This document shows, one piece after another, positions 6,247 to 53,301 of a stretch of 64,000 bases of DNA (positions are counted from its first letter, which is position 1; the number at the start of each line of letters is the position of its first letter). The translations under genes and the position numbers were made by a program. The DNA comes from Minisyncoccota bacterium (GTDB taxonomy: Bacteria > Patescibacteriota > Minisyncoccia > Minisyncoccales > JAQTPW01): positions 35,601 to 99,600 of the forward strand of contig JAQTPW010000002.1 of NCBI GenBank assembly GCA_028712565.1. Direction: 5' to 3'. The notes beneath the pieces were generated by a model. It had not been told where the DNA came from. It searched no databases and worked only from the letters and a program-made list of their open reading frames with translations.

Positions 6247-6267
6247 ATATTATCTTAATTTATATTA

Positions 6268-7474: not shown

Positions 7475-7482
7475 ACTCAAAA

Positions 7483-8757
7483 TTATTTTTTATTGTTATT
7501 TTTTTCTTGATTAAATAAAACGATATCTCGATACGGCTCATTAATAATATTCGTTTCTTTTAGGCCAAGCCTTGAAAGAAGATTCATATTTTTATCTAAT
7601 GCCATTTCCCTATCGCTTTTTTTGATATTAATGCCTTCTATTTCTACAAACCATCCGGCATTTTCCACGTTATCAATAGTTATCTTTTGATTTCCCAAAT
7701 CGTACGTTTCTCTTTCCTTTATTACTTCGGCAACTTTTATAAAATTGAGCGCTTGAAGCAGCGATTCCGCTTCTTCTTTTGAAGATTTTAATAAAATGTT
7801 AAATTCTGGCTTCCAAAATTGTTTTTTATTATCCATATCCTTTGTGGTTGGCCCTTTGTAAGTTAATTCTAAAGCATCGTCTTTTTGCCTGATTCGCAGG
7901 CATATTTTTGATTTAATAAAATCTTCGTAGGCAGAAGTAAAGTATGCATCTTTTTCTTTCTTTTTTTCTTTTAAAATAGCTCCCAACATAAGCAGTTTTT
8001 TTCTTATAGAGTCGGCTTCTGATCGGTTTATTTTTACCTTAATTTCTATTTCTTCACCCTGATTTGAATCCATTAAAGAAGCATAAAAGTATTTCCCTTC
8101 TGCCCCACTTTTTTTGATAATTTCATTGGCTTTCATTTCCGTTAATTCTTGCCAAGATGTTCCCGGAAAATTATTTCTGAAAGATTCAACAATGTAGACA
8201 CCTAGTTTATAACCAATCCATTTTGGCAGGATTCCCTTGCCATAAAACCACTCCGCATGATTATAACTGCCGCCTTTTCCCTCGTCTCTTTTTCGGATAA
8301 TTTTTAGAAAATCAGAAATCTCTTTTTCGTTAAACTTGGCCCACGGCGCGACAAATGCTTTCCATTGCTCTTTTTCAAAGACCGAAGCTATTCCTTCGCT
8401 GACAATCGTCTCTAAAAGAGTGTTGCCGTATCCAATAGATCTCCAGCGGGCGATATGGTTCATTTCGTGGTAAATATTTGCCGGCAAATATTTTTCAATT
8501 ATATTTTTTAAGCCGCATTTTTTATTTTTTGGATCGATGTAAATCTGAATCCAGTCCCCGGACGGCGTATAGCCCCCTTCTCCGGTTTCCGGCATCGCCC
8601 AAGAAGGCTTAGGATAAACCGTTATCGTAACATAAGGTATATTCAAAAGCCGGCCCGCCGCCAAAGCGTGCTTTTTTATTGTTTTATTCAACAAATCCTT
8701 TTCTTCTTTAGGAATATCAAACCCGCTTTTTACATAATTTATAAATAGTTTGGTCAT
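7483..8757 (-). CDS. fusion protein: DUF2268-like putative Zn-metalloprotease domain + CYTH (CyaB/ThTPase-like) domain
   Basis: N-terminal half has YHEMNHIARW (HExxH) followed by ETIVSEGIASVFE. C-terminal half starts with the CYTH signature EIEIKVKI (ExExK) and has the pattern ...LRIRQ...LTYKG...FVEIEG. Confidence 0.6.
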   Translation of the reverse strand: MTKLFINYVKSGFDIPKEEKDLLNKTIKKHALAAGRLLNIPYVTITVYPKPSWAMPETGEGGYTPSGDWIQIYIDPKNKKCGLKNIIEKYLPANIYHEMNHIARWRSIGYGNTLLETIVSEGIASVFEKEQWKAFVAPWAKFNEKEISDFLKIIRKRDEGKGGSYNHAEWFYGKGILPKWIGYKLGVYIVESFRNNFPGTSWQELTEMKANEIIKKSGAEGKYFYASLMDSNQGEEIEIKVKINRSEADSIRKKLLMLGAILKEKKKEKDAYFTSAYEDFIKSKICLRIRQKDDALELTYKGPTTKDMDNKKQFWKPEFNILLKSSKEEAESLLQALNFIKVAEVIKERETYDLGNQKITIDNVENAGWFVEIEGINIKKSDREMALDKNMNLLSRLGLKETNIINEPYRDIVLFNQEKNNNKK

Positions 8758-8764
8758 AATAATT

Positions 8765-9613
8765 TTAAACTGATTTTGCTAAGTTTTCCCATTCAGAGAG
8801 AGTTAAGGTTTCGGCGCGGCGAGAATGGTCTATATTGTTTTTTTGGAGCCAAGATTTGGCTTTTTCTTTATCAATGTCTAGACCTTTTGATAAATTATTG
8901 ACTAGCTGCTTTCTCGGCTGGGAAAAGCCGGCTTTTACAACTTTGAAAAACGAATCTGTGTCAATTTGCGGCAAATTAGCGCCTATTCGTGGTAAATTCG
9001 TGCAAATTCGCGATATCCGAATAATCGCGCTGTCCACTTTTGGCTGCGGCCAAAATGATTTTTTGGAAATGTAGCTTATAATTTCCGGCTTTGCGTAAAA
9101 TTGGACGGAAACAGCCAGAAGGTTCATATCGGGAACTTTTGCGCAGATTCTCTGGGCAACTTCTTTTTGGATTATAAAAACCATCTCATCTGGCGGATTT
9201 TCAACTTCCAGAAACTTTCTTATAATCGGCGCTGTTAAATAAAAGGGAAGATTTGCTAGAACTTTATAGGATTTAGAATTTGGGATATAGGATTTAAGAT
9301 TTATCTTTCTGGCATCTTCTTGCACGACTTCAACATTGCCAAAATCCGCAAGGGTTTCTTTCAAAATCTCTATCATTTTTTCATCTTTTTCTATGGCAAG
9401 GACCTTTCCTACTCTTTTGGCTAATTCTTGGGTTAGATTTCCAATTCCCGGGCCAATTTCCAAGACAAGGTCGTCTTTTGAAAGGTTTGCCGCGCAAATT
9501 AGCTTCTCAATTGCGCCTTTATTTATCAAAAAATTCTGGCCGAACTTCTTTTCCGGCCGGGTTTTATGATTTTCAAGCAAGTTTTTGACGGATTCTTTAG
9601 AGGCAATATCCAT
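8765..9613 (-). CDS. rsmA: 16S rRNA (adenine1518/1519-N6)-dimethyltransferase
   Basis: FGQNFL motif, SAM motif LEIGPGIGNLT, NLPFY motif, typical length. Confidence 0.9.
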   Translation of the reverse strand: MDIASKESVKNLLENHKTRPEKKFGQNFLINKGAIEKLICAANLSKDDLVLEIGPGIGNLTQELAKRVGKVLAIEKDEKMIEILKETLADFGNVEVVQEDARKINLKSYIPNSKSYKVLANLPFYLTAPIIRKFLEVENPPDEMVFIIQKEVAQRICAKVPDMNLLAVSVQFYAKPEIISYISKKSFWPQPKVDSAIIRISRICTNLPRIGANLPQIDTDSFFKVVKAGFSQPRKQLVNNLSKGLDIDKEKAKSWLQKNNIDHSRRAETLTLSEWENLAKSV

Positions 9614-9691
9614 AAGTTTATCTTACTATAAAACAGGGGCTGTGGAAAAAGCCCTTGACTTGTGCGCTAGATGAGTTAAGTATAGAGAAGA

Positions 9692-10771
9692 GTGCATTTT
9701 ATGCGATTTTTTAATGAATTTTTAATAAATCCGCTTAAAAAACATAAGGGTTTCTCAAAAGACCCCTTTTTCTATTTAGCAATATCTGCCTTTGTTTTGC
9801 TGGTTTTTGTCTCTTTTTGCCCTAGATTTAGGGATAGAAACGCCATTCCTCTTAGCTCGGGCTCAAGCCGAGTTGCGGGAAGTTCTTCAGATTCCAGCAG
9901 TTTATTTTTAGGGCAGGCAAGTTCCCAGACAGAATCTCCGGATTTTTATTTAGTTCAAAAAAATAGTTTAATGGGGATTGCTCCGCCAGTTATGGTTACT
10001 CCCCAGGTTCTGGGAGCTATTTTGGGAGAAAATGATTTAAACGTTAGAAAAGAGGTAACAGAATATGAAGTGAAAGAAGGAGATACTTTGTCAACTATTG
10101 CTGAAAATTTCGGGATTTCATTAAAAACTCTGCTTTGGGCAAACAATTTGAGCTCTACTTCGAAAATTAAAGCTGGCCAGACGCTGGTTATCTTGCCGGT
10201 TTCAGGAGTAATCCATCATGTAATTTCTGGAGATACGGTATCGGCAATTGCTTTAAAATATAAAGCCAAAGCTTCTGATATAGTCAGCTTTAACGAATTG
10301 GCTTCAGAAGACGATATTTTTATTGGAGATATTTTGATTATTCCCGATGGAGTTATGCCGGTTGTAAAATCCAGCTATATTGCCCAAATCCCAATCGCAT
10401 CCAGCTATTTTATCTGTCCTATCGCCTCCCCCTGCCGGATTACCCAAAAACTGCATTGGTATAACGGAGTGGACTTTAGCCACAGCAAATGCGGGGATTC
10501 AATTTATGCGGCTGCCGGCGGAACGGTCCAGAAAGTAAAATTTGGCTGGAATGGCGGCGGAGGAAATACTATTACGATTTTGCATCCAAACGGAGTCATA
10601 ACAAGCTATGGCCATATTCAGACAGCTTTGGTAAAGGCAGGAGATCAGGTTTATCAAGGCCAAATTATTGCTTTGATGGGAGGCCTTCCCGGAACTTCAG
10701 GGGCTGGAATATCAACTGGCTGCCATTTGCATTTTGCTGTTATCGGCGGCAGAAACCCGTTTGGGTACTAG
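9692..10771 (+). CDS. LysM-domain M23 family peptidoglycan endopeptidase
   Basis: Two LysM repeats (YEVKEGDTLSTIAENFG.., HHVISGDTVSAIALKY..). M23 motifs HNGVDF and CHLHFAV. The ATG at 9701 is an alternative start. Confidence 0.85.
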   Translation: MHFMRFFNEFLINPLKKHKGFSKDPFFYLAISAFVLLVFVSFCPRFRDRNAIPLSSGSSRVAGSSSDSSSLFLGQASSQTESPDFYLVQKNSLMGIAPPVMVTPQVLGAILGENDLNVRKEVTEYEVKEGDTLSTIAENFGISLKTLLWANNLSSTSKIKAGQTLVILPVSGVIHHVISGDTVSAIALKYKAKASDIVSFNELASEDDIFIGDILIIPDGVMPVVKSSYIAQIPIASSYFICPIASPCRITQKLHWYNGVDFSHSKCGDSIYAAAGGTVQKVKFGWNGGGGNTITILHPNGVITSYGHIQTALVKAGDQVYQGQIIALMGGLPGTSGAGISTGCHLHFAVIGGRNPFGY

Positions 10772-10808
10772 AAAATAGATTTAAGATTAAAGATTTAAGA
10801 TTTAAGAA

Positions 10809-10830
10809 AAAACAGAGATTACTCTGTTTT
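10809..10830. terminator. bidirectional hairpin between convergent genes
   Basis: aaaacagag-atta-ctctgtttt, with A/T runs on both sides. Confidence 0.5.
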
Positions 10831-12352
10831 AATTTTCTTTGACTCTGTACATTAAAGCTTCGGCTAAGTGGTCAAAAGAAATATTTTCACAAGACGATAA
10901 ATCAGCTATAGTTCTGGCTACTTTTAAAACTCTATGATATCCTCTGGCTGAAATTTTCCCAGAATCAACGTATTTTCTCATTAAGTCTTCAGATTTTAAA
11001 TCAATTTTGCAGTATTTTTTAATTTGGGGAATTCCCATTTCAGAATTTGTCAAAATTTTTTCATTTTTAAATCTTTCCATTTGAGCCCTTCTTGCCGATT
11101 CTACTCTTTCTTTTATTTTCTGGCTGGAATTTTCTTCGTCGGGAGAAGTTAACTTTTCGTATTTTAAGGGAGGCACATCGATAAATAAATCCATTCTGTC
11201 CATTAAGGGCCCGGAAAGCTTTCTTCTATACATATATATTTGAGAAGGCGTGCAAGTGCATCTTTTTACCGGGTCGTTTAAATACCCGCAAGGGCAGGGA
11301 TTGGTGGCGGCAATTAACATAAAACGGGCAGGTAAGGTCAAAGAAGTTTTGGCTCTTAAGACCGTAACTTCTCCATCTTCCAAAGGCTGTCTTAAGGATT
11401 CTAAGGCATCTCTATGGAATTCCGGAAATTCGTCCAAAAATAAAACTCCTCTGTGCGCCAAAGTAATTTCTCCGGGCCTTGGCGGATTTCCTCCGCCGAT
11501 TAAAGCAACTTCAGAAGAGGTATGATGGGGCGAGCGGAATGGCCGCAAATTAATCAAGGGCTTGCCTTTTGGCAAGAATCCGGAAACGCTATAAATTTTT
11601 GTAACCTCCAAAGATTCTTCAAAGGACAAAGATGGCAAAATAGAAATTGCAGATTTTGCCAAAAGGGATTTGCCTGTGCCCGGAGGCCCGGTAAATAATA
11701 AATTATGCGAGCCGGCCGCTGAAACTTCCAAAGCCCTTTTTGCATATTCCTGGCCTTTTACATAACTCAAATCAATTTGGTATTCGGGTTTTTCCAAAAA
11801 ATCTTCAGTTTTTGTTTCAAAAGGCGCAATATTTAATTTTCCCTCCAAATAAAAAACAGTTTCTTTTAAATTTCCAACAGGAATTACTTTTATTCCTTTA
11901 ATTAAAGCGGCTTCTGGGGCATTTTCTTTTGGCAAAATAATTTCTTCAAAATTTTTTTCTTTGGCGGACAAAGCAAAAGAGAGCGCGCCTTTTACGGGCC
12001 TCAAGTTTCCGTCCAAGGCAAGTTCTCCCAGAAACATTCTTTTTTCAAAGCCAAATTTTGTCTGTTTTGAAGCTGCCAAATACGCCAAAGCAATGGGCAA
12101 ATCATATAACGCCCCTTCTTTTTTAAGGTCAGCAGGAGCTAAAGAAACCAAAACTCTGACTGGCGTGCTGTGCGGAGATTTAAATCCAGAGCTTTTAATT
12201 GCAGAACTTACTCTTTCTCTGGCTTCCTGGACAGCTTTGTCCGGGAGGCCGACAATGGCAAAAACCGGCAGGCCGTAAGAAACATCGGTTTCCACTTCAA
12301 TTATTTGAGCGTCAAGGCCGACAACAGCTGCAGAGAAAACTTTTGAAGGCAT
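10829..12352 (-). CDS. comM: YifB/ComM family Mg-chelatase-like ATPase
   Basis: Lon-like N-terminal domain. Walker A GPPGTGKS, then LFLDEFPEF and a C-terminal ChlI-like region. Full-length at 507 aa. Confidence 0.9.
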   Translation of the reverse strand: MPSKVFSAAVVGLDAQIIEVETDVSYGLPVFAIVGLPDKAVQEARERVSSAIKSSGFKSPHSTPVRVLVSLAPADLKKEGALYDLPIALAYLAASKQTKFGFEKRMFLGELALDGNLRPVKGALSFALSAKEKNFEEIILPKENAPEAALIKGIKVIPVGNLKETVFYLEGKLNIAPFETKTEDFLEKPEYQIDLSYVKGQEYAKRALEVSAAGSHNLLFTGPPGTGKSLLAKSAISILPSLSFEESLEVTKIYSVSGFLPKGKPLINLRPFRSPHHTSSEVALIGGGNPPRPGEITLAHRGVLFLDEFPEFHRDALESLRQPLEDGEVTVLRAKTSLTLPARFMLIAATNPCPCGYLNDPVKRCTCTPSQIYMYRRKLSGPLMDRMDLFIDVPPLKYEKLTSPDEENSSQKIKERVESARRAQMERFKNEKILTNSEMGIPQIKKYCKIDLKSEDLMRKYVDSGKISARGYHRVLKVARTIADLSSCENISFDHLAEALMYRVKEN

Positions 12353-17580: not shown

Positions 17581-17843
17581 TTATGTATTAATATAAGGTT
17601 AAAATAAAATTACCTCTAGGGGGAAAATTCTTAATTAATCATATCTAAAAAAAACAAAAAAGGCAAGATGCCCTAAGGTAAAAATCCCAATTATCAATTA
17701 CCAATTACCAAATCGAATGTAATTTGTACGAGTAATTTGTAATTGGGGAGCAAATTTTTATTCACATTTCGCAGTCGTACCGCCCTAATTACTAAATACT
17801 AACTACTAACTACTGCAATATTTTGCAATGGCAAAATTTGCTG

Positions 17844-19748: not shown

Positions 19749-19785
19749 TACCACGTGAAAATTTTGCCAAAGCAAACTTTTTACG

Positions 19786-33240: not shown

Positions 33241-33261
33241 GTCAAAAATTTTCCCGCTTTG

Positions 33262-35691
33262 ATGAAAAAGCAAAAATATAACCCCTCTTTTATTTTAATA
33301 TTTTTTTCAGTTTTTTTTACACTGGCAGTTTTTTTTGTTTTTAGTAATTTTGCCAATGCTCAGGAATTGATCTGGGAACAGGTAGAAAATATTGTTGGGG
33401 GCAAACAAAATGATGAGGCGCCTTATGGCGCAGTTGTAGACAATACTTATCTTTATTTAGTTGGCTCTGATTTCAACACGCCCTATACTTACGACTCCCA
33501 ATGGCGAGTTGAAAAAAGGGACAAGTCAAATGGCAGCTTGGTTTCTTTCAAGGTTATAAACTTTTTAGATAGCGGGCTGACAGATCTTGCAGCCGGAGTT
33601 GCCGCAGACGATAATTATCTTTATATAATTGGCACAAGATATTTCGGCAGCTTTAATTGGCGCATTGAAAAAAGGCGGAAATCTGATTTGATTGTTGAAA
33701 GTTATAAACATGCAAATACGGGCGAAGGCAGGGCAATTTTCCTTAGCGGAGATTACCTATATTTGATTGGGACAGATGCAGCTTCTGGAGAGGACAGATG
33801 GAGAATTGAAAAGCGAGATAAGGCGCTGAATTTGATTTGGGGGTTAACCGTAGCTGATGACAGGGTTGAATGGAATGATATGGTAACGCCCTCCTCAATT
33901 TATGTTGATGAAAATTATTTGTATGCGGCAGGTTCTATTGGGACTACGCCGAATTCGTGCTGGAGAATTGAGAAACGGCAAAAAACAGATGGAAGTTTAG
34001 TTGGAGGTTCAACTGGCAAATGCGGCGAATTTGTTTATGTCGCGAGTATTTCAGCTGACCAAAATTACTTATATCTGGCAGGCAGAGACCAGTCGGGCGC
34101 GTCGAATGATTCAATCTGGCGGATTGAAAAAAGAAGAAAATCGGATTTGGGAATTGAATGGTTTGTAACTTCAAACGATCCGGTTGCGTATTGGCAAGAA
34201 AAAGCAACTGCTATTTTTGCCGACAGTAATTATTTGTACATATCTGGGAATTCCGGTTTGGAAGGCGAGGGTTGGCGGCTGGAAATAAGATTAAAGTCGA
34301 ATGGAAATTTAATTTTTAGCGAAACTAGCGCCGAACATTCTGAATTCCAGCAGGGAATAAAAAATTCTATTGCCCAAGATGGAGATCACATTTATATTGC
34401 GGGCCCCGATTATAGTCCATCATCGGACAGCAGATGGAGAATTGAGAAAAGGACAAAATTAAAAACTAATGTCTCTGGTTTTGCCTGGTCTGAAAACATC
34501 GGCTGGATCAGTTTCGGGAACATTTCAGGAGGAACAGTAAGTTACGGTGTAGATATAAACGAAGCAGGAGAATTTTCCGGCCAAGCTTGGTCTGAAAACA
34601 TCGGCTGGATCAGTTTTGACAAAGCCGAAACCGGAACCCCGCCCGTCGAACCTTATAATGGTTCCGAAACCTATGTCGCAAAAGTTGATTTAGAAACAAG
34701 GAAAGTTACTGGTTGGGCAAGAGCATTGTCTTATGGCTCAGACTGGGATGGTTGGATAAAACTAAGCGGCCCTGATTATGGGATTTGGATTGATGATTCT
34801 GTGGAGCCGGCAGAATTTATGAATTATACCTGGAGCGCAACTGACACATACCCCGCCGTGATAGGTTGGATAAGCTTTAATTGCAGAAATAATGACTGGT
34901 GCGTGGCTTCCGATTATAAAGTAATTACAACTTTTAATTTTAACAGCCCGCCTGAAAAACCCGGCGTCCCCGCAGAATATCCTGAAGGCGAAACTTGGAA
35001 TAATTGCCAAACCGAAGGGCTTTCTGTGCCAACTTTTTACTGGACTTACTCTGACCCGGAAAGCGATCCTCAGACAGGTTATGAAATCAGAATAGACAAT
35101 GATTCTGATTTCGCAACCCAGGACCCCGAAGAATTAACATACTCAGGAGGAGTGTCAACTTCGTATATTCCGATTCCTAGCGTTTGGGCAGATTGGATGA
35201 ATTGGGACACAAATTATTGGTGGGTAGTCAGAGTAAAAGACGACCATGAAAATTGGTCTGAATGGTCAGATGCAAATCCTTTTAAATCTCCTTTGCACGC
35301 ATCGCCTTTTGTAGATTTTACCCATTTGCCCCAAAGCCCGATAGCCGGCACGCCAGTTGATTTTTTCGACAGCTCGATATGCTATTCTTATCCCGGAAAT
35401 GCGCCATATAATTGCAAAGATAATTGCACGGGCCTTGTTTATTTGTGGGATTTTGGAGACGGCAATTTTAGTTCAGATTGCGACACTACCTCCCATGCTT
35501 TTTTGCAGGCAGGGCCTTATGACGTGAAATTATCGATTACCGACAATACTTTTCCTTCTCCGGAAATCTGCATAAAGAACGGGGACAGCCCGGTTGGAGT
35601 GCTTCCGCCCCTTCCCAAATGGAAAGAAATAACTCCCCTAATGTTTTTAAAAAAGTTTTTTGCGTCAATTTCAAATAGATTCAAATTTTAA
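33262..35691 (+). CDS. large secreted repeat protein (7x WRIEKR-type repeats, 3x GWISF motifs, C-terminal PKD-like domain)
   Basis: Signal peptide followed by repeats of the form D.NYLY..G....WR[IV]EKR.K..G.L. Then SENIGWISF (x2) and VIGWISF, and YLWDFGDG...HAF...GPYDVKLSITD (PKD). Confidence 0.7.
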   Translation: MKKQKYNPSFILIFFSVFFTLAVFFVFSNFANAQELIWEQVENIVGGKQNDEAPYGAVVDNTYLYLVGSDFNTPYTYDSQWRVEKRDKSNGSLVSFKVINFLDSGLTDLAAGVAADDNYLYIIGTRYFGSFNWRIEKRRKSDLIVESYKHANTGEGRAIFLSGDYLYLIGTDAASGEDRWRIEKRDKALNLIWGLTVADDRVEWNDMVTPSSIYVDENYLYAAGSIGTTPNSCWRIEKRQKTDGSLVGGSTGKCGEFVYVASISADQNYLYLAGRDQSGASNDSIWRIEKRRKSDLGIEWFVTSNDPVAYWQEKATAIFADSNYLYISGNSGLEGEGWRLEIRLKSNGNLIFSETSAEHSEFQQGIKNSIAQDGDHIYIAGPDYSPSSDSRWRIEKRTKLKTNVSGFAWSENIGWISFGNISGGTVSYGVDINEAGEFSGQAWSENIGWISFDKAETGTPPVEPYNGSETYVAKVDLETRKVTGWARALSYGSDWDGWIKLSGPDYGIWIDDSVEPAEFMNYTWSATDTYPAVIGWISFNCRNNDWCVASDYKVITTFNFNSPPEKPGVPAEYPEGETWNNCQTEGLSVPTFYWTYSDPESDPQTGYEIRIDNDSDFATQDPEELTYSGGVSTSYIPIPSVWADWMNWDTNYWWVVRVKDDHENWSEWSDANPFKSPLHASPFVDFTHLPQSPIAGTPVDFFDSSICYSYPGNAPYNCKDNCTGLVYLWDFGDGNFSSDCDTTSHAFLQAGPYDVKLSITDNTFPSPEICIKNGDSPVGVLPPLPKWKEITPLMFLKKFFASISNRFKF

Positions 35692-35886: not shown

Positions 35887-37416
35887 ATGAATTCATTACT
35901 TCTATTAATTGTAGGCGTTTTAGCCTTAGGAATAGGATCAACTTTAGGGTATCTTGCCCGCCAATCAATCGCGAGAAGGAATTACCGGACCATAGAAGCC
36001 CGGCTCCAAAAGAAAATTGATCAGGCAAGGCAGGACGCTGATTTAATATTATCTCAGGCAAAAGAAAAATCATCTCTAATCCTTGAATCTGCAAAAAAGA
36101 ATGAAGATGAGAGGAGGGCAGACCTTTTGCAAACAGAAAGGCTTCTTTTAAGGCGTGAAGATGTTTTGGATGAAAAAATTTCCAATCTGGAAAAAAGGGA
36201 AAATGAGTTTAATGATAGGGTGGAAAAATTAAAAGAGATAAAAGAAAATCTGGAAGGTTTGCACAAATCCGCCCTTGAAAATTTGGAGAGAATTTCCGGG
36301 CTTTCCAGAGAAGAGGCAAAAAAAGAATTTTTGGGAAATTTGGAAAGGGAATATCAAAAAGAATTTATGGAAAGAACCAGAAAGTTGGAATCAGAGGGAA
36401 TAGAACAATTTGAAAAAAAAGCAAAAGAAATTTTAGCATTAGCCATTCAAAAACTGGCAATTAACCAATCTCAAGAAATTACAACAACTACTGTCAGCCT
36501 TCCCTCTGAAGAAATAAAAGGCAGGATTATCGGAAAAGAAGGGAGAAATATAAGGACTTTGGAAAGGTTGACCGGAGTGGAAATTGTAGTTGACGAAACC
36601 CCAGAGGCAGTTGTAATTTCCGCCTTTGATCCTATAAGAAGGCAAATTGCAAAAGTAGCTTTGGAAAAACTGATGCAGGATGGCAGAATCCAGCCGGCCA
36701 GAATTGAAGACACGGTTATCAAAGCAAAAGAGGAAATAGCAAAACAAATAAAAGACGCAGGAGAGCAGGCAGTTTATGATGTTGGGCTTTTGGGTTTGGA
36801 CCAAAAATTAGTCCAGCTATTGGGAAGGCTGCGCTTTAGAACAAGTTACGGCCAGAATGTTTTATTGCATTCAATTGAGGTGGCGCATTTGGCCGCGGGA
36901 TTGGCCGCTGAAATAGGAGCCAATGCAAAGACGGCTTTGAAAGCCGGATTGTTGCACGATATCGGTAAGGCCGTTGACCAGCAAGTGGAGGGTTCTCATA
37001 CAGATATTGGGGTTAAAATTTTGGAAAAATTCGCAGTAGAAAAAGAAGTGGTAGATGCCATGAAATCCCATCATGAAGAATATCCTTATTCCAGCTTGGA
37101 AGCTATAATAGTCCAGACAGCCGATGCCATATCCGGGTCAAGGCCGGGAGCCAGAAAAGATACTTTGGAAAATTATTTGAAAAGATTGGGAGATTTGGAA
37201 AATATTGCCACATCTTTTGCCGGCGTAGAAAAAGCTTGGGCATTGCAAGCTGGAAGAGAAATCAGAGTTTTTGTAAAGCCGGAAGAAATAGATGACTTTG
37301 GAGCAAAAAAACTGGCAAAAGAAATCGCCAATAAAATTCAGGAAGAATTAAAATACCCCGGAGAAATAAAAGTGAATGTGATCAGGGAAAGCAGAGTCGT
37401 GGAATACGCAAAGTAA
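35887..37416 (+). CDS. rny: ribonuclease Y
   Basis: N-terminal TM helix, coiled coil, KH domain (GRIIGKEGRNIR) and HD domain (LLHDIGKA). Confidence 0.9.
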   Translation: MNSLLLLIVGVLALGIGSTLGYLARQSIARRNYRTIEARLQKKIDQARQDADLILSQAKEKSSLILESAKKNEDERRADLLQTERLLLRREDVLDEKISNLEKRENEFNDRVEKLKEIKENLEGLHKSALENLERISGLSREEAKKEFLGNLEREYQKEFMERTRKLESEGIEQFEKKAKEILALAIQKLAINQSQEITTTTVSLPSEEIKGRIIGKEGRNIRTLERLTGVEIVVDETPEAVVISAFDPIRRQIAKVALEKLMQDGRIQPARIEDTVIKAKEEIAKQIKDAGEQAVYDVGLLGLDQKLVQLLGRLRFRTSYGQNVLLHSIEVAHLAAGLAAEIGANAKTALKAGLLHDIGKAVDQQVEGSHTDIGVKILEKFAVEKEVVDAMKSHHEEYPYSSLEAIIVQTADAISGSRPGARKDTLENYLKRLGDLENIATSFAGVEKAWALQAGREIRVFVKPEEIDDFGAKKLAKEIANKIQEELKYPGEIKVNVIRESRVVEYAK

Positions 37417-37439
37417 AAAAATTATAAATCATCAAAAAA

Positions 37440-37460
37440 GCGCCCGCGGGCGCTTTTTTT
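37440..37460 (+). terminator. rny terminator
   Basis: gcgcccgcgggcgc palindrome followed by ttttttt. Confidence 0.65.
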
Positions 37461-37534
37461 GGGTGACTCGGGGAGCGGGCCGCCCCGTCCAGTCAAGCTG
37501 GGCGGGCGATCCTCGCACTTTTCTTTTTAAAAAT

Positions 37535-37709
37535 GAGTATATTTACGACTTCGCTCGAACTCATTTTATCAGAAATTCCTGAAAAATCCAGTGCTCGCCG
37601 CCCGACTGGCGGCGAGCAGGAAACACCCTCGGCTCGCGGGCGAAAAATCCTTCCCCCAGCCCCTTTTCATTTTTCGCCCGCTCGCCGGAAAAATTTTTGA
37701 GGGAAAAAA
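37535..37709 (+). repeat. inverted repeat X, left copy
   Basis: 37535-37641 is the exact reverse complement of 40743-40849 (107 bp by hand alignment). The inner part is diverged but ends in a shared 27-mer. It contains the GC-rich hairpin ctcgccgcc-cgact-ggcggcgag. Confidence 0.85.
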
Positions 37710-39125
37710 TTATTTAGAAATTGTAATGTAGGTATTACTTTGACTCAAGAGTAAATTTTTAACCTCAATACCCCAACTTGATAAAATATTTACATCTCCT
37801 ATTTGAATTTTGTATTTAGCCGGTCCAATTTTAAATCTCTGAAAAAGTCCAACTGGTATGTTCCAATCAAACACTTTCTGGGAAACCAAAACATCTTTTG
37901 CGATAAGATATCTCGGCGTTAAATCGCTAGTTGGATAATATTGATAATCAATTTTTGGCTCAATATCTTTTCCGTCTTGCTGATAAGCGTACAAATAAAT
38001 ATTAACTTTTTTATTTTCTAATCCTAATTGATCCCATTTAATAGAGTATATGCCGCCTTCTCTTAATTGGTTTTCTGGTTGCAAAGCCTCTAATTTTGTT
38101 GGCTCAATAAATTTAAAAGTAGACACTGTTTGATTAAGGGTTTCTTCCATTTTTTTAGAATCTGACCCGACGGTAATTCCAATCATAAACAAATAATTTC
38201 CTTTTGCTACAAAATTATCAATAGCTTTGCCACCATTTACGCAGACAGCATTTATCCCATCAATTTCGCCTATTTTTACTTCCTTGGTTGCGCATTGCTT
38301 AGTAAAAAACGACGGCATATATTTATTTAACCATTCTTTGGTAGGAAAATTTTCCGAATTATCGTAAACTGCGATGTTTATTCCGTCCGGCAGAATCCGC
38401 ACTAGCTTGAGACAAGTGTACTCCTCCGTTCCTTGACACCACCAATAAGGCTGGCTTTCGATTTTTACCTCACTATTTTGCGGATATTTTATTTCAAAGC
38501 CATATTCCCCATTCTTGTAGGTCTGCCAAGTAACAGTTTCCCCGTCTGAAACAACCTTAAAGTAATTGGGTGATTCTTTTGTATCTTCAATCCGCCCCTT
38601 TTTATCATGGCCGGTAATAATAACTTTAAAATTATCCCCCGATTGCCAAACTGGATATGCGTTAAAAAGATCACTAGGAATGGACCAATTATAGACCCCG
38701 TCTTTGGCAGAAAAATTATCAATGATCTGGCCGTAGCAAACCTCTGTTTTAGCCATTTCAGAAGGTAAAAAGATATTTTCCATGCTGGTTGTAGAATATC
38801 TATTAAGACAATCATAATTAACTATCTGAATTCCTATTTTATCTATGCCGGTTGATTGCCATTGAATTGGATACGTGTTTCCAACTTTTAATTCGTTTTC
38901 AACTGAAGAAACCGCCAATGCGGGTTGCTTCCAGTTTTTATCGTGAAAATAAGCTATACCACTGAGTATAGAAATAACCACAATAACAATGATTATAGCG
39001 GGAAGCCAGTAACGAACGGGGATTTGGGCGTGCGTTACGCCCTCTCCTTTTCTTCTAGAAATCATCCATATTATAAAACCCCCGAGTAAAAATACTACTA
39101 AAAGAGTGATTGTTGAAGATTCCAT
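37710..39125 (-). CDS. N-terminally anchored surface protein with repeated beta-rich modules
   Basis: TM helix at the N-terminus. Two similar modules (VGNTYPIQWQSTG..DGVYNWSIPSDLF..GDNFKVIITG and EGGIYSIKWDQLG..VFDWNIPVGLF..AKYKIQIGD). Confidence 0.55.
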   Translation of the reverse strand: MESSTITLLVVFLLGGFIIWMISRRKGEGVTHAQIPVRYWLPAIIIVIVVISILSGIAYFHDKNWKQPALAVSSVENELKVGNTYPIQWQSTGIDKIGIQIVNYDCLNRYSTTSMENIFLPSEMAKTEVCYGQIIDNFSAKDGVYNWSIPSDLFNAYPVWQSGDNFKVIITGHDKKGRIEDTKESPNYFKVVSDGETVTWQTYKNGEYGFEIKYPQNSEVKIESQPYWWCQGTEEYTCLKLVRILPDGINIAVYDNSENFPTKEWLNKYMPSFFTKQCATKEVKIGEIDGINAVCVNGGKAIDNFVAKGNYLFMIGITVGSDSKKMEETLNQTVSTFKFIEPTKLEALQPENQLREGGIYSIKWDQLGLENKKVNIYLYAYQQDGKDIEPKIDYQYYPTSDLTPRYLIAKDVLVSQKVFDWNIPVGLFQRFKIGPAKYKIQIGDVNILSSWGIEVKNLLLSQSNTYITISK

Positions 39126-39140
39126 AATTATTATATTATT

Positions 39141-40196
39141 TTAGAAATTACTCTGAAAAATTACAGGGACAATTAATGGTGAAGGTGGAGATACGTGAGT
39201 AGCCGGCCAGTCGCCAAAAATCTCAATAGTCCCTTTTTTAGATAACGGGGAAGAAAAAGAAACAGTTTTACTAAAGGGACAAAATAGTCTTGCATAATCA
39301 CAATTTTCGCAATCGCAATTTTCAATTTGAGTAGTTGTAAAGGTAGAAACCAACTCTTTGCCAGTTTCGTCCTTTATTTTAATATAAACCGTACCTTCAA
39401 AGGTGCTTGCCTTGCCTTCAATCTCAACCGGATTGAAAACTACCGAATTTGGTTGAGGTTGATCAACTACAATAAATTTTTGAAATGTTTCTTCTCCACT
39501 ACCGATTGTTTGTTCTTCATTTTCGCCCGTTTCTTCCGACACGCCAAAATACTGCAAAGCCAAAATTCCTAATCCTCCAAATACTAAAATGGCAATAATT
39601 ACAATAATTAAAGTCTTCTTTATCGGTCGAGTTTTCTCTGCGTATTGAATTTCAGGCGATGCTTTTGATAATTTTATAAGAAAATGATGCACCGAAAAGA
39701 AGCTAATAAATGACAATACTACTAGCAGTATAATCAAAAGTATAAATAATATTATTATCCAAGCAATAGGTATGCCCGTAAACTTCCCTGTTAAAAAATC
39801 TAAAAGAATAAGGAAAATATTGATTGAAATTATCCAAATTATAGTAGTCTTAGCTATTTTTTCAATTTGTTGAAAATCAATTTGAAAACGTTTTGCCACG
39901 GATTTAGCACCATATATGCTGCCAAGGAAACTTCCGATAGCTACGGCTAAAATCAAATAAAGAAGACTTATAATATTTGTATTGCCTGGCTCAATGTTAA
40001 ATATAAAAACAAGAACAAACGCAAAGGCAAGCCAAGTTAAAAAAGCAGTGAGTAAAATCTGCTGAGCAATAAAAAAACTGATTTTATTAACGGAAGCAGG
40101 GACTGCCATAACTTTTTTCCTATCTATTATATATTTCACAGGTAAAATAATTACCGCAAGGATAATTATAATGAAAAAGATTGCAAAAAGAGGCAT
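39141..40196 (-). CDS. polytopic membrane protein with C-terminal Gmad2-like Ig-fold domain
   Basis: About 6 TM helices. The C-terminus is VVDQPQPNSVVFNPVEIEGKASTFEGTVYIKIKDETGKEL...GTIEIF. Confidence 0.55.
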   Translation of the reverse strand: MPLFAIFFIIIILAVIILPVKYIIDRKKVMAVPASVNKISFFIAQQILLTAFLTWLAFAFVLVFIFNIEPGNTNIISLLYLILAVAIGSFLGSIYGAKSVAKRFQIDFQQIEKIAKTTIIWIISINIFLILLDFLTGKFTGIPIAWIIILFILLIILLVVLSFISFFSVHHFLIKLSKASPEIQYAEKTRPIKKTLIIVIIAILVFGGLGILALQYFGVSEETGENEEQTIGSGEETFQKFIVVDQPQPNSVVFNPVEIEGKASTFEGTVYIKIKDETGKELVSTFTTTQIENCDCENCDYARLFCPFSKTVSFSSPLSKKGTIEIFGDWPATHVSPPSPLIVPVIFQSNF

Positions 40197-40223
40197 GATT
40201 GTTTATTGTTTTAATATTACCAT

Positions 40224-40252
40224 ACTATACCTCAAAAATAGCCTTTAGACAA
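40224..40252 (-). promoter_or_regulatory. sigma70-like promoter for 39141-40196
   Basis: Minus strand TTGTCT, 17-nt spacer, TATAGT, about 25 nt upstream of the ATG. Confidence 0.45.
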
Positions 40253-40253
40253 G

Positions 40254-40285
40254 TATAAAAAAGCCCCTCGATGCTATCTCGGGGC
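40254..40285 (-). terminator. terminator after 40308-40613
   Basis: Minus strand gcccc...ggggc stem followed by tttttt. Confidence 0.45.
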
Positions 40286-40307
40286 TTTTCAGCACTCCAG
40301 AAAAGGA

Positions 40308-40613
40308 CTACTTTAGCAAGTTTTTAGGCAATTTTACTACTTCTCTGAAATATATCTTGGATCCTTTGACTTCGTTATCGCTTATACGAATTAAGTGTTT
40401 CCCGCAATCACAGAGAAAGAGGCCGTTCTTTTCCGGAAATTCGCCACAACAAGCGGGTGGCTTCCGACCAATGCTGTTCTTAGCAGTCTTAATGCCATCG
40501 TCCCACCTCTCAAATCCCTGGAAGACAATCTTGGCGTAAAATGTGGTCTTTAATCTAAGATTTCCAACCCTTACATCTTCCTGAAGAACAACTGTATTCC
40601 TTATTCTTTTCAT
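40308..40613 (-). CDS. small 4-Cys (zinc-ribbon-like) protein, unknown function
   Basis: 101 aa containing ACCGEF...CDCGKH. A strong RBS (aaaggagg) and promoter lie upstream. Confidence 0.5.
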   Translation of the reverse strand: MKRIRNTVVLQEDVRVGNLRLKTTFYAKIVFQGFERWDDGIKTAKNSIGRKPPACCGEFPEKNGLFLCDCGKHLIRISDNEVKGSKIYFREVVKLPKNLLK

Positions 40614-40637
40614 TTTTTCCTCCTTTTATGATTTAAA

Positions 40638-40666
40638 ATTGTACCTTATTTATTCAAAATTGTAAA
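40638..40666 (-). promoter_or_regulatory. sigma70-like promoter for 40308-40613
   Basis: Minus strand TTTACA, 17-nt spacer, TACAAT. Confidence 0.45.
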
Positions 40667-40673
40667 GGTTTCA

Positions 40674-40849
40674 TTTTTTTCCTCAAAAATTTTTCCGGCG
40701 AGCGGGCAAAAAATGGAAGGGTTTTAGGGGAGGAAATTTTTTGCCCGCGAGCCGAGGGTGTTTCCTGCTCGCCGCCAGTCGGGCGGCGAGCACTGGATTT
40801 TTCAGGAATTTCTGATAAAATGAGTTCGAGCGAAGTCGTAAATATACTC
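40674..40849 (-). repeat. inverted repeat X, right copy
   Basis: Reverse complement of 37535-37709. Confidence 0.85.
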
Positions 40850-40983
40850 CACGATAAAACTTTTCGGCTTTTTGGAAGCCATTTCACGGGCGGCGCAAAG
40901 CGCCGCCCAGTGCGTTTTAAGAGGGAAATCCGTTCCGCTCGGCGCGCTCTGGCGCGCCTCGCGGTTTAGTAAAATGAGGTTCG
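40847..40983 (-). repeat. inverted repeat Y, left copy
   Basis: Exact reverse complement of 42538-42674 (137/137 by hand alignment). It overlaps the X copy by 3 nt. Confidence 0.9.
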
Positions 40984-41007
40984 TTGAGCGATTTTTAAAA
41001 AGAATTT

Positions 41008-41034
41008 TTGCTTTTTATTTTGGCGTGGTATAAT
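41008..41034 (+). promoter_or_regulatory. extended -10 promoter for the recombinase
   Basis: TGgTATAAT at 41026-41034 with a weak -35 (ttgctt). Confidence 0.4.
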
Positions 41035-41150
41035 GAAGTTGCGACAAACAGACCAACGAATTTTTTAATGGCCGTCTTCGGAACAATCCAATTCGTTGGG
41101 TTTGTCGCACCGAGGGCGGCCATTTAAGTTTTAATAACTAATCAAAATAT

Positions 41151-42701
41151 ATGCAAAAATTCTTTTTATACGCCCGCAAGTCCACCGATGTGGAAGACAA
41201 ACAAGTTAGGTCTATTGAAGACCAAATATCAGAATTGCGCGCCTTTGCTCAAAAAGAAAATTTAGAAATTACTGATATTTTTATCGAAAAACAATCCGCC
41301 AAAGTTCCGGGCAGGCCAATTTTTAACAAAATGATAAAACGAATTGAAGGGGGCGAGGCAGACGGAATTTTGGCGTGGCACCCCGATAGATTGGCGCGCA
41401 ATTCGGTGGACGGTGGAAAAATTATCTATCTCATTGATTGCGGGCGTATTTCTACCCTGAAATTCCCGACTTTTTGGTTTGAACCAACGCCGCAAGGAAA
41501 ATTCATGTTGAATATTGCTTTTGGGCAAAGCAAATACTATGTTGATAATTTGAGCGAGAATACAAAAAGAGGTTTGCGCCAAAAAGTTAGACGAGGCGAA
41601 TATCCGGGTTTCGCGCCGATTGGATATTTAAACGATTCAAGAATAAAAAGCGTGGTTATGGACAAAAAGAAATCTCAAATTATCAAAAAGGCATTTGAAC
41701 TCTACGCCGAAAACAATTATCGGCTTGAAGATGTTTCTAACTTTTTGGCGCAACAAGGAATTACTTCGCGAGGCGGAAAAAACCTAAAACGAGACAGAAT
41801 TTCTTTTATCCTTTCCAATCCGTTTTATGTCGGGTTATTCAGATATTCTGGCGAAATACACGAAGGCAAGCATCAGCCAATTATATCAAAGAAAATTTTT
41901 GATAAAGCGCAGGAAATCTTAAAGCAAAGAGGAAGACCGCACCACAAACCTAAAAATGAACCTCAACCATTTTGCGGGGTTTTGAAGTGCGGGAATTGCG
42001 GAATGTCCATCACTGGCGAATACAAGGTTAAAAGACAAAAGAACGGCAACGAGCATTACTACACCTATTACCACTGCACCCACAAATCCAAAACAATCAA
42101 ATGCAAAGAGCCTTGTATTCGCCAAGAGAAATTAGATAAACAAATTTCCTCTTTGCTTCAAAAATTTTCTTTGAAAAAAGCTTGGGCAGAAGAATTAAAT
42201 AAAATGTTGGAAAAAGATAAAACGAAAACCGCCCAATCTTTTACCGCTTTTGTTCAAGGAGCGCAAAACAAAGTTAAAGAAATTTCCATCAAACTTCAGC
42301 GTCTTTTGGACGGCTATTTAGAACAAGATATTGAAAGAGAAATTTATAGAGTAGAAAAAGCAAAACTGCTTTCCGAAAAGAAGTCGCTGGAAGAAAAAAT
42401 AACCTCTCTTGAACAAAAGCGGATTGGCTGGATCGAACCGATGAAAGAATGGATAAAAGAAGCAGAAAACCTTCCTAAAATCGCTCAAAACGACAACCTT
42501 TTTGCTAAAAAGGTCGCCTGCCGAAATATTTTCGGCTCGAACCTCATTTTACTAAACCGCGAGGCGCGCCAGAGCGCGCCGAGCGGAACGGATTTCCCTC
42601 TTAAAACGCACTGGGCGGCGCTTTGCGCCGCCCGTGAAATGGCTTCCAAAAAGCCGAAAAGTTTTATCGTGGAGCGGGTAATGGGAATCGAACCCACATA
42701 A
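41151..42701 (+). CDS. large serine recombinase (resolvase domain + recombinase domain + zinc ribbon + coiled coil)
   Basis: YARKSTDVEDKQVRSIEDQ (catalytic Ser motif), HPDRLARN, PFYVGLFRY, and CGVLKCGNCG...YYTYYHCTH. The last codons (..MGIEPT*) read through the T-arm of tRNA-Gly, so the native C-terminus is uncertain. Confidence 0.85.
   Translation: MQKFFLYARKSTDVEDKQVRSIEDQISELRAFAQKENLEITDIFIEKQSAKVPGRPIFNKMIKRIEGGEADGILAWHPDRLARNSVDGGKIIYLIDCGRISTLKFPTFWFEPTPQGKFMLNIAFGQSKYYVDNLSENTKRGLRQKVRRGEYPGFAPIGYLNDSRIKSVVMDKKKSQIIKKAFELYAENNYRLEDVSNFLAQQGITSRGGKNLKRDRISFILSNPFYVGLFRYSGEIHEGKHQPIISKKIFDKAQEILKQRGRPHHKPKNEPQPFCGVLKCGNCGMSITGEYKVKRQKNGNEHYYTYYHCTHKSKTIKCKEPCIRQEKLDKQISSLLQKFSLKKAWAEELNKMLEKDKTKTAQSFTAFVQGAQNKVKEISIKLQRLLDGYLEQDIEREIYRVEKAKLLSEKKSLEEKITSLEQKRIGWIEPMKEWIKEAENLPKIAQNDNLFAKKVACRNIFGSNLILLNREARQSAPSGTDFPLKTHWAALCAAREMASKKPKSFIVERVMGIEPT
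42538..42674 (+). repeat. inverted repeat Y, right copy (inside the recombinase 3' coding region)
   Basis: Identical to the reverse complement of 40847-40983. Contains the GC palindromes ggcgcgc-caga-gcgcgcc and gggcggcgc-ttt-gcgccgccc. Confidence 0.9.
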
Positions 42702-42743
42702 ATAGCTTGGAAAGCTATCACACTACCATTGTGTTATACCCGC
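42670..42743 (-). tRNA. tRNA-Gly(TCC)
   Basis: Acceptor GCGGGTA/TACCCGC, discriminator U, CCA encoded. Anticodon stem ATAGC/GCTAT with loop TT-TCC-AA. T arm GTGGG-TTCGATT-CCCAT. Confidence 0.8.
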
Positions 42744-42804
42744 CTTCGCCAGCCGTAGCTGGCTTCGGCGGGAAATGACCGCCAAGGCTAGCGAAGGCTG
42801 GATG

Positions 42805-42876
42805 TCGGGGGAGAGGGAGTTGAACCCTCAATCTTACGCACCCAAAGCGCACATGTTGCCATTACACCATCCCCCG
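42805..42876 (-). tRNA. tRNA-Pro(TGG)
   Basis: Acceptor CGGGGGA/TCCCCCG, anticodon loop TT-TGG-GT, T arm GAGGG-TTCAACT-CCCTC. Confidence 0.75.
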
Positions 42877-42964
42877 CTGGATAATAACATTCTAATATAT
42901 TTTTCCCCCAAGTCAATTTAACTTTTTTCTTCTTGGGTCCCTTTAAATATGTTATAATATTTTA

Positions 42965-43912
42965 ATGGATAAACCAAAATTTATTGAAAGTGCTAATATT
43001 TACTCCCAGTGCAAAAAATACGGGCTTCCTCTTTGGCAGTGCCCCCAATTTTTATTTTTGATAATGGGAGCAGTTATTGTTACGGCAATTTTAACAACTT
43101 ATATTGTCGGCACCCATTATGTCAACAACCCCCCGCTTATTACTTTAATTATTTTGATATTAGTTGTAATTTTATTTGTCATATCCTTTGTCATAATAAA
43201 GAGCTTTGAAAGGTTGGCAGAAGCAAACCGGATGAAATCTGAATTTGTTAATATTGTTTCTCATCAGTTGAGATCCCCCCTTACAAATTTGAACTGGACG
43301 ATTGAATTATTGATGTCGGGAGAGGTCGGAAAAATCGGAGAAAAACAGGTGGATTATTTCAGAATTTTGAAAGAAAACAGCGGCAGAATGGCTGATCTTA
43401 TTTCCGACCTTTTGATAGCTTCAAAAATTGAAACTGCAACTTTGCCAGCAAAAAAAGAGGAAGTTTCTTTAAGGAAAATATTAGATGAATTAATAAAAGA
43501 ATTCGCCCTTTTTGCAAAAGCTTCAAATGTGGAAATGAAATTTGATTTTCAAGAAAATCTGCCTTTAATTTTAGCAGATTCTTTCCAGATTAAACTCGCA
43601 ATTGAAAACCTTTTGGATAATGCAATCCGCTACGTAAAGACAAACGGCGAAGTTTCAATAAAGCTGGAAAAGCAGGGGAAAAATATTTATTTGGAAATAA
43701 AAGATAACGGAGTCGGCATTCCAAAAGATGATCAGAAATACATTTTCCAAAGATTTTTCCGTTCCGAAAATGCGCTTCGCCACCAGACGCAGGGAACAGG
43801 CTTGGGCCTGTATATAACAAAGGCAATAATAGAAAAATCGGGCGGAAAAATAAGTTTTAAATCAATAGAAAATAAAGGGACAACTTTTTCCCTTATATTC
43901 CCGGCCAAATAA
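42965..43912 (+). CDS. sensor histidine kinase
   Basis: Two TM helices. H-box SHQLRSPLTNL and the HATPase motifs DNAIRY, DNGVGI, GTGLGL. Confidence 0.85.
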   Translation: MDKPKFIESANIYSQCKKYGLPLWQCPQFLFLIMGAVIVTAILTTYIVGTHYVNNPPLITLIILILVVILFVISFVIIKSFERLAEANRMKSEFVNIVSHQLRSPLTNLNWTIELLMSGEVGKIGEKQVDYFRILKENSGRMADLISDLLIASKIETATLPAKKEEVSLRKILDELIKEFALFAKASNVEMKFDFQENLPLILADSFQIKLAIENLLDNAIRYVKTNGEVSIKLEKQGKNIYLEIKDNGVGIPKDDQKYIFQRFFRSENALRHQTQGTGLGLYITKAIIEKSGGKISFKSIENKGTTFSLIFPAK

Positions 43913-53221: not shown

Positions 53222-53301
53222 TAGCAAATTTTGCTATCGCAAAATATTGCAGTAGTTAGTATTTAGTAATTAGTAATTAGGGACGTTTAAATCTAAAAAA
53301 T

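Follow-up and report, generated by a model that had tools for sequence, protein, structure and literature searches.

A 64,000-nucleotide stretch of a Minisyncoccota genome (assembly GCA_028712565.1, contig JAQTPW010000002.1, positions 35,601 to 99,600; hereafter the window) carries, at the 3' end of a tRNA-Gly(tcc) gene, an element that belongs to a very large family of integrative cassettes of the Patescibacteria (candidate phyla radiation, CPR) driven by large serine recombinases that form a distinct clade. The family inserts at positions 72-74 of tRNA and transfer-messenger RNA (tmRNA) genes, and a second, inverted attP block (~310 bp in this element) lies between the cargo and the recombinase promoter. 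We regard this account of what the element is as very probable. Our explanation of the design as a whole, a self-locking integrative cassette, is one on which we hold the scales about level.

The element is bounded by two unlike segments, X on the left and Y on the right, and a preliminary description of this DNA had noted that both recur inverted and abut at 40674-40983. Repeat comparison confirmed this arrangement. The two copies of Y (40847-40983 and 42538-42674) are complementary at 137 of 137 positions. X matches its inverted copy over an outer stretch of 114 nt (37535-37648 versus 40736-40849; 99% identity) and an inner stretch of 68 nt (37643-37710 versus 40673-40740) with 84% identity and indels. 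A 27-mer, GCCCGCTCGCCGGAAAAATTTTTGAGG, occurs exactly twice in the window, with an expectation of 0. The internal copies, X' and Y', share 3 nt (40847-40849), and the reverse complement of 40674-40983 reads ...ttatcgtgGAGtatatttacg..., that is, the right end of the element joined to its left end through GAG, as had been described. Together, X' and Y' make up an intact inverted attP that holds an intact recombinase 3' end. The joined ends, Y-X, read ...atcgtgGAGtatattt...; in the plus orientation and linked to the recombinase 3' end, this sequence would mark a circle or a flipped arm.

The repeats are GC-rich (X 51% and Y 57%, against 38% for the window), in agreement with the preliminary description, and each bears a strong, terminator-like hairpin. 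Neither X nor Y has a further copy within the 64-kb window, which rules out here the possibility, raised earlier as a refutation, that they are dispersed repeats. They were also considered as known structured RNAs, and an Rfam search of 36800-43400 at E <= 1 matched the two tRNAs only.

The right boundary falls, as proposed, within the last bases of the target gene, which ARAGORN and Rfam place at 42670/42673-42743 on the minus strand. Y supplies the last 5 nt of this tRNA, including a terminal CCA; an encoded CCA is absent from most tRNA genes of the window, tRNA-Gly(gcc) among them. The empty site would have ended ...ACCCG[CTC]ATTTTT, resembling ...ACCCGCTC-ATATC of tRNA-Gly(gcc), and its expected sequence would be ...ttaaaaatGAGcgggtaatggg... 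We also noticed a GC-rich stretch between the rny terminator and the element (37461-37520, plus strand; ...ccgtccagtcaagctgggcggg...). Its hairpin with a GTCAAGC loop resembles those directly 3' of tRNA-Ala(ggc) (56369) and tRNA-Phe (63741), and the stretch may be the original trailer of tRNA-Gly(tcc).

The recombinase and its split C-terminus

The recombinase found no match in an exact-protein lookup, and its domains are those of a large serine recombinase. Homologue comparison placed the window in a metagenome-assembled genome of Candidatus Pacebacteria (P0001). The N-terminal catalytic domain (PF00239, E = 6e-23, residues 5-150) has a Y-x-R-K-S-T motif with S11 invariant in 30 homologues. 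It is accompanied by PF07508 (Recombinase; DNA-binding domain 1, DBD1; E = 6e-17) and PF13408 (Zn_ribbon_recom, DBD2; E = 1.3e-8). AlphaFold2 (AF2) predicts a coiled-coil insert of two long helices (residues 343-391 and 396-425) that separates the zinc ribbon from the final beta hairpin, and the sequence aligns with the SPbeta and A118 integrase structures. The preliminary identification of an integrative element that sits at the 3' end of tRNA-Gly and is driven by a large serine recombinase is supported.

The recombinase reading frame crosses the Y-X junction of the joined ends and continues for 14 codons (x(L/I/F)Y(N/D)xARTYFxxxx and a stop). Among 86 unique junctions in the family, 69 have their stop at an identical codon position and 82 within one codon of it, and the tail codons vary synonymously (e.g., CGA/AGA and ACT/ACC). 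Joining Y to X in the window yields a protein of 522 aa that ends ...SFIVEYIYDFARTHFIRNS. Of the 120 closest proteins in the database, about 20 have this native tail and are exactly 522 aa long; the remainder run into antisense tRNA sequence (...ERVxGIEP...). The AF2 model of one native-tailed protein (P0003, 88% identical) has a beta hairpin at residues 465-474 and helices at 487-497 and 503-521, with a block-mean predicted local distance difference test (pLDDT) score of 75-91 over residues 491-522. The 14 codons beyond the crossover thus make up about two thirds of a C-terminal helix that is predicted with confidence. The integrated arrangement swaps everything after residue 508, and the intact gene end remains solely in the internal inverted copy. 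In the SPbeta integrase, F532, near the C-terminus, was reported to matter for how directionality is controlled (PMC11722253). By analogy, it is conceivable that the swapped tail affects the direction of recombination.

The coding sequence of Y contains in all family members a perfect GC hairpin, GGGCGGCGC-TTT-GCGCCGCCC (e.g., window 42613-42633). It codes for the conserved WAALCAA helix of the recombinase and, on the opposite strand, forms a terminator-like hairpin for the tRNA. The same sequence appears to have two functions at once.

Spread, targets and arm contents of the family

Scans found at least 568 loci among the GTDB species representatives and a minimum of 588 among the JGI metagenomes, and recombinase homologues with 50-89% identity number in the thousands in Patescibacteria. 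Phage and plasmid collections held no close relative (best identity, 24-29%), and viral contigs gave just two partial N-terminal matches. About 100 independent Patescibacteria loci, from genomes and metagenomes, have a common order: X, variable cargo, X'Y', recombinase, Y and the 3' end of a tRNA or tmRNA gene. Self-comparison of the best 80 of the genome loci showed, where the contig was long enough, a Y'/Y inverted pair of ~110-160 nt flanking the recombinase and an X/X' pair of 120-360 nt flanking a cargo arm of 1.0-8 kb. X' and Y' overlap by 3-9 nt in family loci. In 27 fully spanned genome loci, the reversed internal junction is identical to the left part of attR followed by the right part of attL, and the metagenome contigs agree. 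Many contigs stop inside X' or Y', as would be expected of repeats that break short-read assemblies. The repeat copies are 98-100% identical within most elements and diverged between elements, which indicates that they evolve in concert. A class of elements made of the recombinase arm alone was considered and set aside: loci lacking a detected X pair still have X' beside Y'.

In ~58 genome and ~38 metagenome loci, the outermost few bases of Y coincide with the 3' end of a tRNA gene on the opposite strand. The targets comprise more than 20 tRNA species (Gly x3, Arg x4, Leu x4, Val, Thr, Lys, Glu, Gln, His, Tyr, Ile, Ala, Asn, Asp, Ser, Met, Phe and Trp), and one locus (L028) has targeted the tmRNA gene. 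Y terminates in ...TGG-N-N and so provides the CCA. Large serine integrases cross over at a 2-nt central dinucleotide common to attP and attB; in the family, the core shared with the target is 3-9 nt long and always includes tRNA positions 72-74; GTG is the commonest, followed by GAG (15 of 91 junctions). The GAG-core loci that were inspected lie at tRNA-Gly (the window and L002) or tRNA-Thr (L021). The tRNA-Leu(taa) and tRNA-Arg(tcg) genes are occupied in other genomes and vacant in the window, which serves as family-level evidence of empty sites. Two sites on one contig (L073 at ~11530 and L057 at ~2614, both JAPUDQ010000038.1) have 12 nt of tRNA-3'-like sequence after the end of Y and then unrelated sequence; they could be secondary (pseudo-attB) sites or later rearrangements.

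Alignment of the 91 non-redundant junctions places a (C/A)GAAC motif most often at +19 on the X side and the antisense T-loop sequence TCGAAC at +15 on the tRNA side. In the window likewise, the X motif lies ~19 nt away from where the flanks of X and the tRNA cease to match. In large serine integrases, the DBD2 motif is 4-5 bp nearer the center in attB than in attP, and 4 bp nearer in SPbeta (PMC11722253). The offset in the family matches this rule, indicating that Y-X is a bona fide attP and that the B' half of attB is formed by the tRNA 3' end. The tRNA trailer, which makes up the other half, is not conserved. From these alignments, the second DNA-binding domain of the recombinase would read the antisense T-loop TCGAAC and the X arm would mimic this motif 4 bp further out. 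The Y arm would restore the tRNA by providing a CCA in the encoded sequence, together with a trailer and a terminator-like hairpin.

The cargo arms have no ORF (open reading frame) family common to the loci, and their genes lie in either orientation. The recombinase arm consists of a promoter, a leader and the recombinase gene alone. The family therefore has no conserved gene for a directionality factor or for replication. The X and Y hairpins are placed so that, on either side of an arm, they face transcripts that exit the cargo arm or enter the recombinase arm, including read-through from the tRNA. With identical hairpins in X/X' and in Y'/Y, each arm would be transcriptionally insulated whichever way it lies.

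In most loci, an extended -10 element lies between Y' and the start codon, and after it comes a hairpin that pairs through its loop with a segment further downstream. This pseudoknotted leader is a candidate new cis-regulatory RNA. In the window, helix P1 pairs 41041-41062 with 41090-41108, and the loop AATGGCCGTCTTCGG (41067-41081) pairs with the downstream CCGAGGGCGGCCATT (41110-41124). The leader is present at the equivalent position in most of L005-L080. Its covariation is strong: the outer stem is 99% paired with compensatory changes at seven of nine pairs, its pseudoknot is 88% paired with compensatory changes at nine of 15, and none of 500 shuffles attained the observed covariation score. 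Conserved U-G pairs, which would be A-C mismatches on the opposite strand, suggest that the leader acts as an RNA. It has no match in Rfam. Two other sequence types have the same topology (L041-L045 with L050, and L001-L003), and some loci are without a leader. A role as a target guide, similar to the IS110 bridge RNA, was rejected: the leaders of L007, at tRNA-Val, and L028, at tmRNA, are essentially the same.

Features of the element in the window, with positions counted from the first nucleotide of the window
Feature	Position	Strand	Remarks
Left crossover core, GAG	37535..37537	.	Common to the right end and the internal copy; attL is the chromosomal flank joined to X
X	37535..37709	+	P' arm of attP plus flank; holds the (C/A)GAAC DBD2-type motif
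Detached end of the recombinase ORF	37538..37582	+	14 codons and stop (YIYDFARTHFIRNS, stop); in frame only with Y joined to X
Terminator-like hairpin in X	37592..37618	-	Would stop transcripts leaving the cargo arm
Cargo arm	37710..40673	-	Three minus-strand ORFs
Cargo ORF, 471 aa	37710-39125	-	N-terminal hydrophobic stretch (by eye); weak immunoglobulin (Ig)-like match
Cargo ORF, 351 aa	39141-40196	-	Several hydrophobic stretches (by eye); Gmad2 domain
Cargo ORF, 101 aa	40308-40613	-	No match
X'	40674..40849	-	Inverted copy of X
Hairpin in X'	40766-40792	+	Same hairpin as in X
Y'	40847..40983	-	Inverted copy of Y, 137/137
Extended -10 promoter-like element, TGGTATAAT	41026..41034	+	For the recombinase; position conserved in many loci; found by eye, not listed by the consensus scan
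Pseudoknotted 5' leader of the recombinase mRNA	41041..41124	+	Conserved
Large serine recombinase ORF as integrated, 516 aa	41151..42701	+	Last 9 codons antisense to the tRNA; native form would be 522 aa
Y	42538..42674	+	P arm of attP; codes for roughly recombinase residues 463-508
Terminator-like hairpin in Y	42613-42633		For the tRNA on the opposite strand
Target gene, tRNA-Gly(tcc)	42670..42743	-	Crossover at tRNA positions 72-74 (window 42672-42674)

Elsewhere in the window, the trailers of tRNA-Lys(ctt) and tRNA-Arg(tct) have the palindromic motif agcaaattttgc(c/t)at(t/c)gcaaaata in common, and the tRNA-Arg(tcg) trailer has the related gtttgctttggcaaaat. The sites of this repeated downstream element are 17818-17842 (minus), 53222-53246 (plus) and 19761-19785 (minus). 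An 810-aa, secreted-looking protein (33259-35691, plus) has about eight YLY...G...WRIEKR(D/R)K repeats followed by repeated GWISF segments.

Arm orientation, proposed mechanism and alternatives

The preliminary description had predicted that the excised form would be a circle in which two inverted attP blocks separate the cargo and recombinase arms, and this geometry follows from joining the ends of the integrated form. In the mechanism that we propose, either attP of the circle would recombine with the attB of a tRNA gene. Use of the attP at the 3' end of the gene, as in the window and ~100 other loci, would deprive the recombinase of its native C-terminus, switching the enzyme off and locking the insertion. 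Use of the other attP, or inversion of the recombinase arm between Y' and Y, would let the gene read into the intact internal Y-X. A recombinase with this end would stay full-length and active until the element is excised or flips and becomes locked. On this view the internal copy is both a second attP and a spare 3' gene end, and a locked copy could be reactivated by inversion, either through host homologous recombination across the 137 identical bp or by a full-length enzyme acting in trans. An absorbing locked state would explain why the recombinase 3' end lies against the tRNA in ~100 loci and the opposite way in two. We offer this lock-and-reset mechanism tentatively and put its chances somewhat short of even.

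The two loci with the opposite orientation are L028, with the order tmRNA-Y'-R-Y-X-A-X' (R, recombinase arm; A, cargo arm), and L072, with the order tRNA-Val-Y'-R. The repeat copies of L028 are 94-98% identical, and their differences make a misassembly unlikely. Several short contigs also have permuted orders (R-Y-X-A in L082 and L083, and X'-Y'-R-Y-X in L089). They fit circles or flipped arms, but also repeat mis-joins or tandem arrays. Proteins with the native tail were considered as proof of circles and, though suggestive, rejected as ambiguous, given that their contigs end in repeats (L082, L083 and L089) or hold tandem arrays (L081 and L088). Hybrid junctions between a Y and the X of another element (L032, L049 and L081), together with a Y-tRNA-X arrangement in L088 in which the X is foreign, show tandem accretion in which new copies enter between the resident element and the tRNA. 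In L081 (VMGM01000010.1, Parcubacteria Licking1014_1, 4719-11815), the same chromosomal surroundings as in the window (trigger factor, ClpP and RNase Y) also hold a family member, whose cargo differs. This element has lost its internal Y' and attP core, and its recombinase runs into the foreign X of a hybrid junction. The locus looks like a rearranged tandem array.

Several observations weigh against the self-locking explanation. The orientation bias could instead reflect host selection, for example on convergent versus co-directional transcription with the tRNA, and the inactivity of the 516-aa form is a proposal from sequence. Canonical serine integrases require a directionality factor for excision, and none was found in the arms of the family. 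Both cases of the alternative orientation, among ~100 loci, come from short-read assemblies. The pairs of loci with homologous cargo (five usable) all have one orientation and are too few to decide. Free flipping of the arms, which the preliminary description inferred, is not supported. At the window locus, neither an excised circle nor an empty site or an inversion isomer was observed, and none of the fetched contigs was circular when terminal overlaps were looked for. Native-tailed ORFs are confined to tandem arrays and to short contigs (at most 5.3 kb), and these may be repeat mis-joins. In L162, the recombinase arm lies between convergent tRNA-Leu and tRNA-Ile genes. This locus was considered as proof that the internal attP is active and rejected, as its two Y copies differ over their outer 45 nt. 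The difference fits an origin of the locus by homologous recombination between two elements, which is probable.

The nearly fixed orientation of the recombinase arm would also be expected if X and Y were simply terminator and trailer modules of an island with one attP, the internal X'Y' never recombining nor serving as a gene end. The terminator-like hairpins in X, X', Y and Y' are placed to stop transcripts that leave the cargo or enter the recombinase arm, consistent with such an insulating role. However, hairpins alone would suffice for insulation, and the exact contiguous core, the half-sites and the in-frame 14-codon end would be superfluous. Furthermore, the X'-Y' junction is always precisely Y-X, and the permuted L028 and L072 do not fit. 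We consider this explanation unlikely. That the element consists of two neighboring transposon-like units, an insertion sequence-like Y'-R-Y with 137-bp terminal inverted repeats and a non-autonomous cargo unit X-A-X', is quite improbable. Each arm is bounded by its own inverted repeat, as such units would be, and the recombinase arm of L162 sits between two tRNA genes without X. Isolated X-type junctions (L063 at 12779 and L119 at 4138) would also be accommodated. Yet X' and Y' always abut on the same core, even in the apparent recombinase-only loci, and X holds the recombinase ORF end and a P'-type half-site, which makes it part of the recombinase system.

Natural transformation is a main way for DNA to enter these bacteria and would be the likely source of a single-stranded element. 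In such a strand, pairing of X with X' and of Y' with Y would make the internal copy a splint for the two ends of the element, and would rebuild a duplex attP whose broken strand consists of exactly these ends. Host flap nucleases and ligase could then cut out the element precisely and close a single-stranded circle without a recombinase or a directionality factor. Second-strand synthesis would give the two-attP circle, from which full-length recombinase would be made and would insert the element at a tRNA end. This scheme would account for an internal copy that is inverted, contiguous, long and near-identical, and for the absent directionality factor. Against it, serine recombinases use duplex DNA, gene conversion can explain the identity of the repeats, the sense-strand G-U pairs of the leader favor an RNA over a single-strand origin, and direct evidence is lacking. 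We give it little credence. A true flip-flop like that of the 2-micron plasmid, with a replicating circle whose inversion raises copy number and for which integration is secondary, agrees with the inferred circle geometry and with the short contigs reading R-Y-X-A. It is extremely improbable in view of the missing conserved replication or partition gene, cargo arms as short as 1.0-1.2 kb in some loci, and the plasmid or phage relatives and circular contigs that were not found; moreover, all long contigs are chromosomal and have one orientation. An assembly or amplification chimera, an alternative raised in the preliminary description, has in its favor that multiple displacement amplification (MDA) is generally prone to inverted junctions, and nothing further. 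The substitutions and indels between the inner parts of X and X', together with the recurrence of the layout in more than 100 loci from many projects, exclude it for all practical purposes.

The self-locking cassette is the explanation that we prefer; the preliminary reading stood in part. The scale of the family and its targeting of any tRNA or tmRNA 3' end, the ORF across attP, the terminator-like hairpins of X and Y and the CCA supplied by Y were not in that reading.

Relation to known systems

Hundreds of CPR/Patescibacteria genomes carry the family, and the delivery of unrelated cargo to tRNA ends is probably a main way in which these reduced genomes gain genes. The recombinases appear to recognize the universal tRNA T-arm together with a matching core at positions 72-74. 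Such a target rule would be unusual among serine integrases in its generality and compactness, and it may be of interest in genome engineering. A recombinase that is cut by its own integration and has a spare inverted end also suggests control of direction or activity without an accessory protein. Full-text literature searches found no description of the family or of its design, in agreement with the preliminary description, which knew of none.

The components of the family belong with the integrative elements of large serine recombinases, which are known. Its closest relatives in design, the large serine integrases and transposases (phiC31, Bxb1, A118/LI and SPbeta SprA; TnpX of Tn4451; CcrAB), likewise have a three-domain architecture with an embedded coiled coil, short att sites with few shared crossover bases, and a DBD2 motif 4 bp closer in attB. 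Unlike them, the family is only 24-29% identical to any phage or plasmid homologue, targets the extreme 3' end of any tRNA or tmRNA gene, has its attP inside the recombinase ORF and a second, inverted attP within the element, and has no directionality-factor gene. An element-encoded directionality factor is usual in phage systems and absent in TnpX-type transposons.

In myxophage Mx8, attP is located inside intP, and integration turns this gene into intX, whose C-terminus differs. The integrase gene of the family also spans attP and has its C-terminal end swapped on integration: attP is inside the ORF and the integrated ORF ends in tRNA antisense sequence. The Mx8 Int is a tyrosine recombinase and has no spare inverted gene end, whereas the family combines a serine recombinase with a spare copy.

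The yeast 2-micron plasmid (FLP/FRT) is a circle with two long inverted repeats and two unique arms, the recombinase lying in one of them, a geometry that the excised form of the family would share. It is, however, an autonomous plasmid with a tyrosine recombinase (FLP), an origin and REP/STB, and its isomers are equally abundant; the family has a serine recombinase, chromosomal integration, no replication genes and an orientation ratio of ~100:2. The likeness in geometry, noted in the preliminary description, stands for the inferred circle; the functional analogy fails, given that the cargo is not shared between loci, replication and partition genes are not conserved and the family is absent from plasmid and phage collections. 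Serine-invertase switches (Mu Gin and the G segment, Hin, shufflons) are similar in having a segment between inverted repeats whose inversion would alter the C-terminal end of a gene. These switches use small invertases, an enhancer and Fis to act on genes for tail fibers, flagellin or pilin; in the family, the inversion, which we infer, would act on the recombinase gene itself. At 516/522 aa, this enzyme is of the large serine type, unlike the small serine invertases (~190 aa with a C-terminal helix-turn-helix).

The tRNA-targeting islands known as tycheposons (10.1101/2020.12.28.424599) also place cargo elements beside tRNA or tmRNA genes and accrete in tandem, with newcomers next to the tRNA. 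Islands of this type use tyrosine recombinases, target one tRNA each and duplicate tens of tRNA bases as direct repeats (10.1101/2020.12.28.424599). In contrast, the family uses a serine recombinase, shares 3-9 nt with its target and has close relatives on many different tRNAs. As far as we can tell, it is the combination of generic targeting of tRNA ends, an ORF that spans attP, an inverted spare attP and a pseudoknotted leader that sets the family apart as new.

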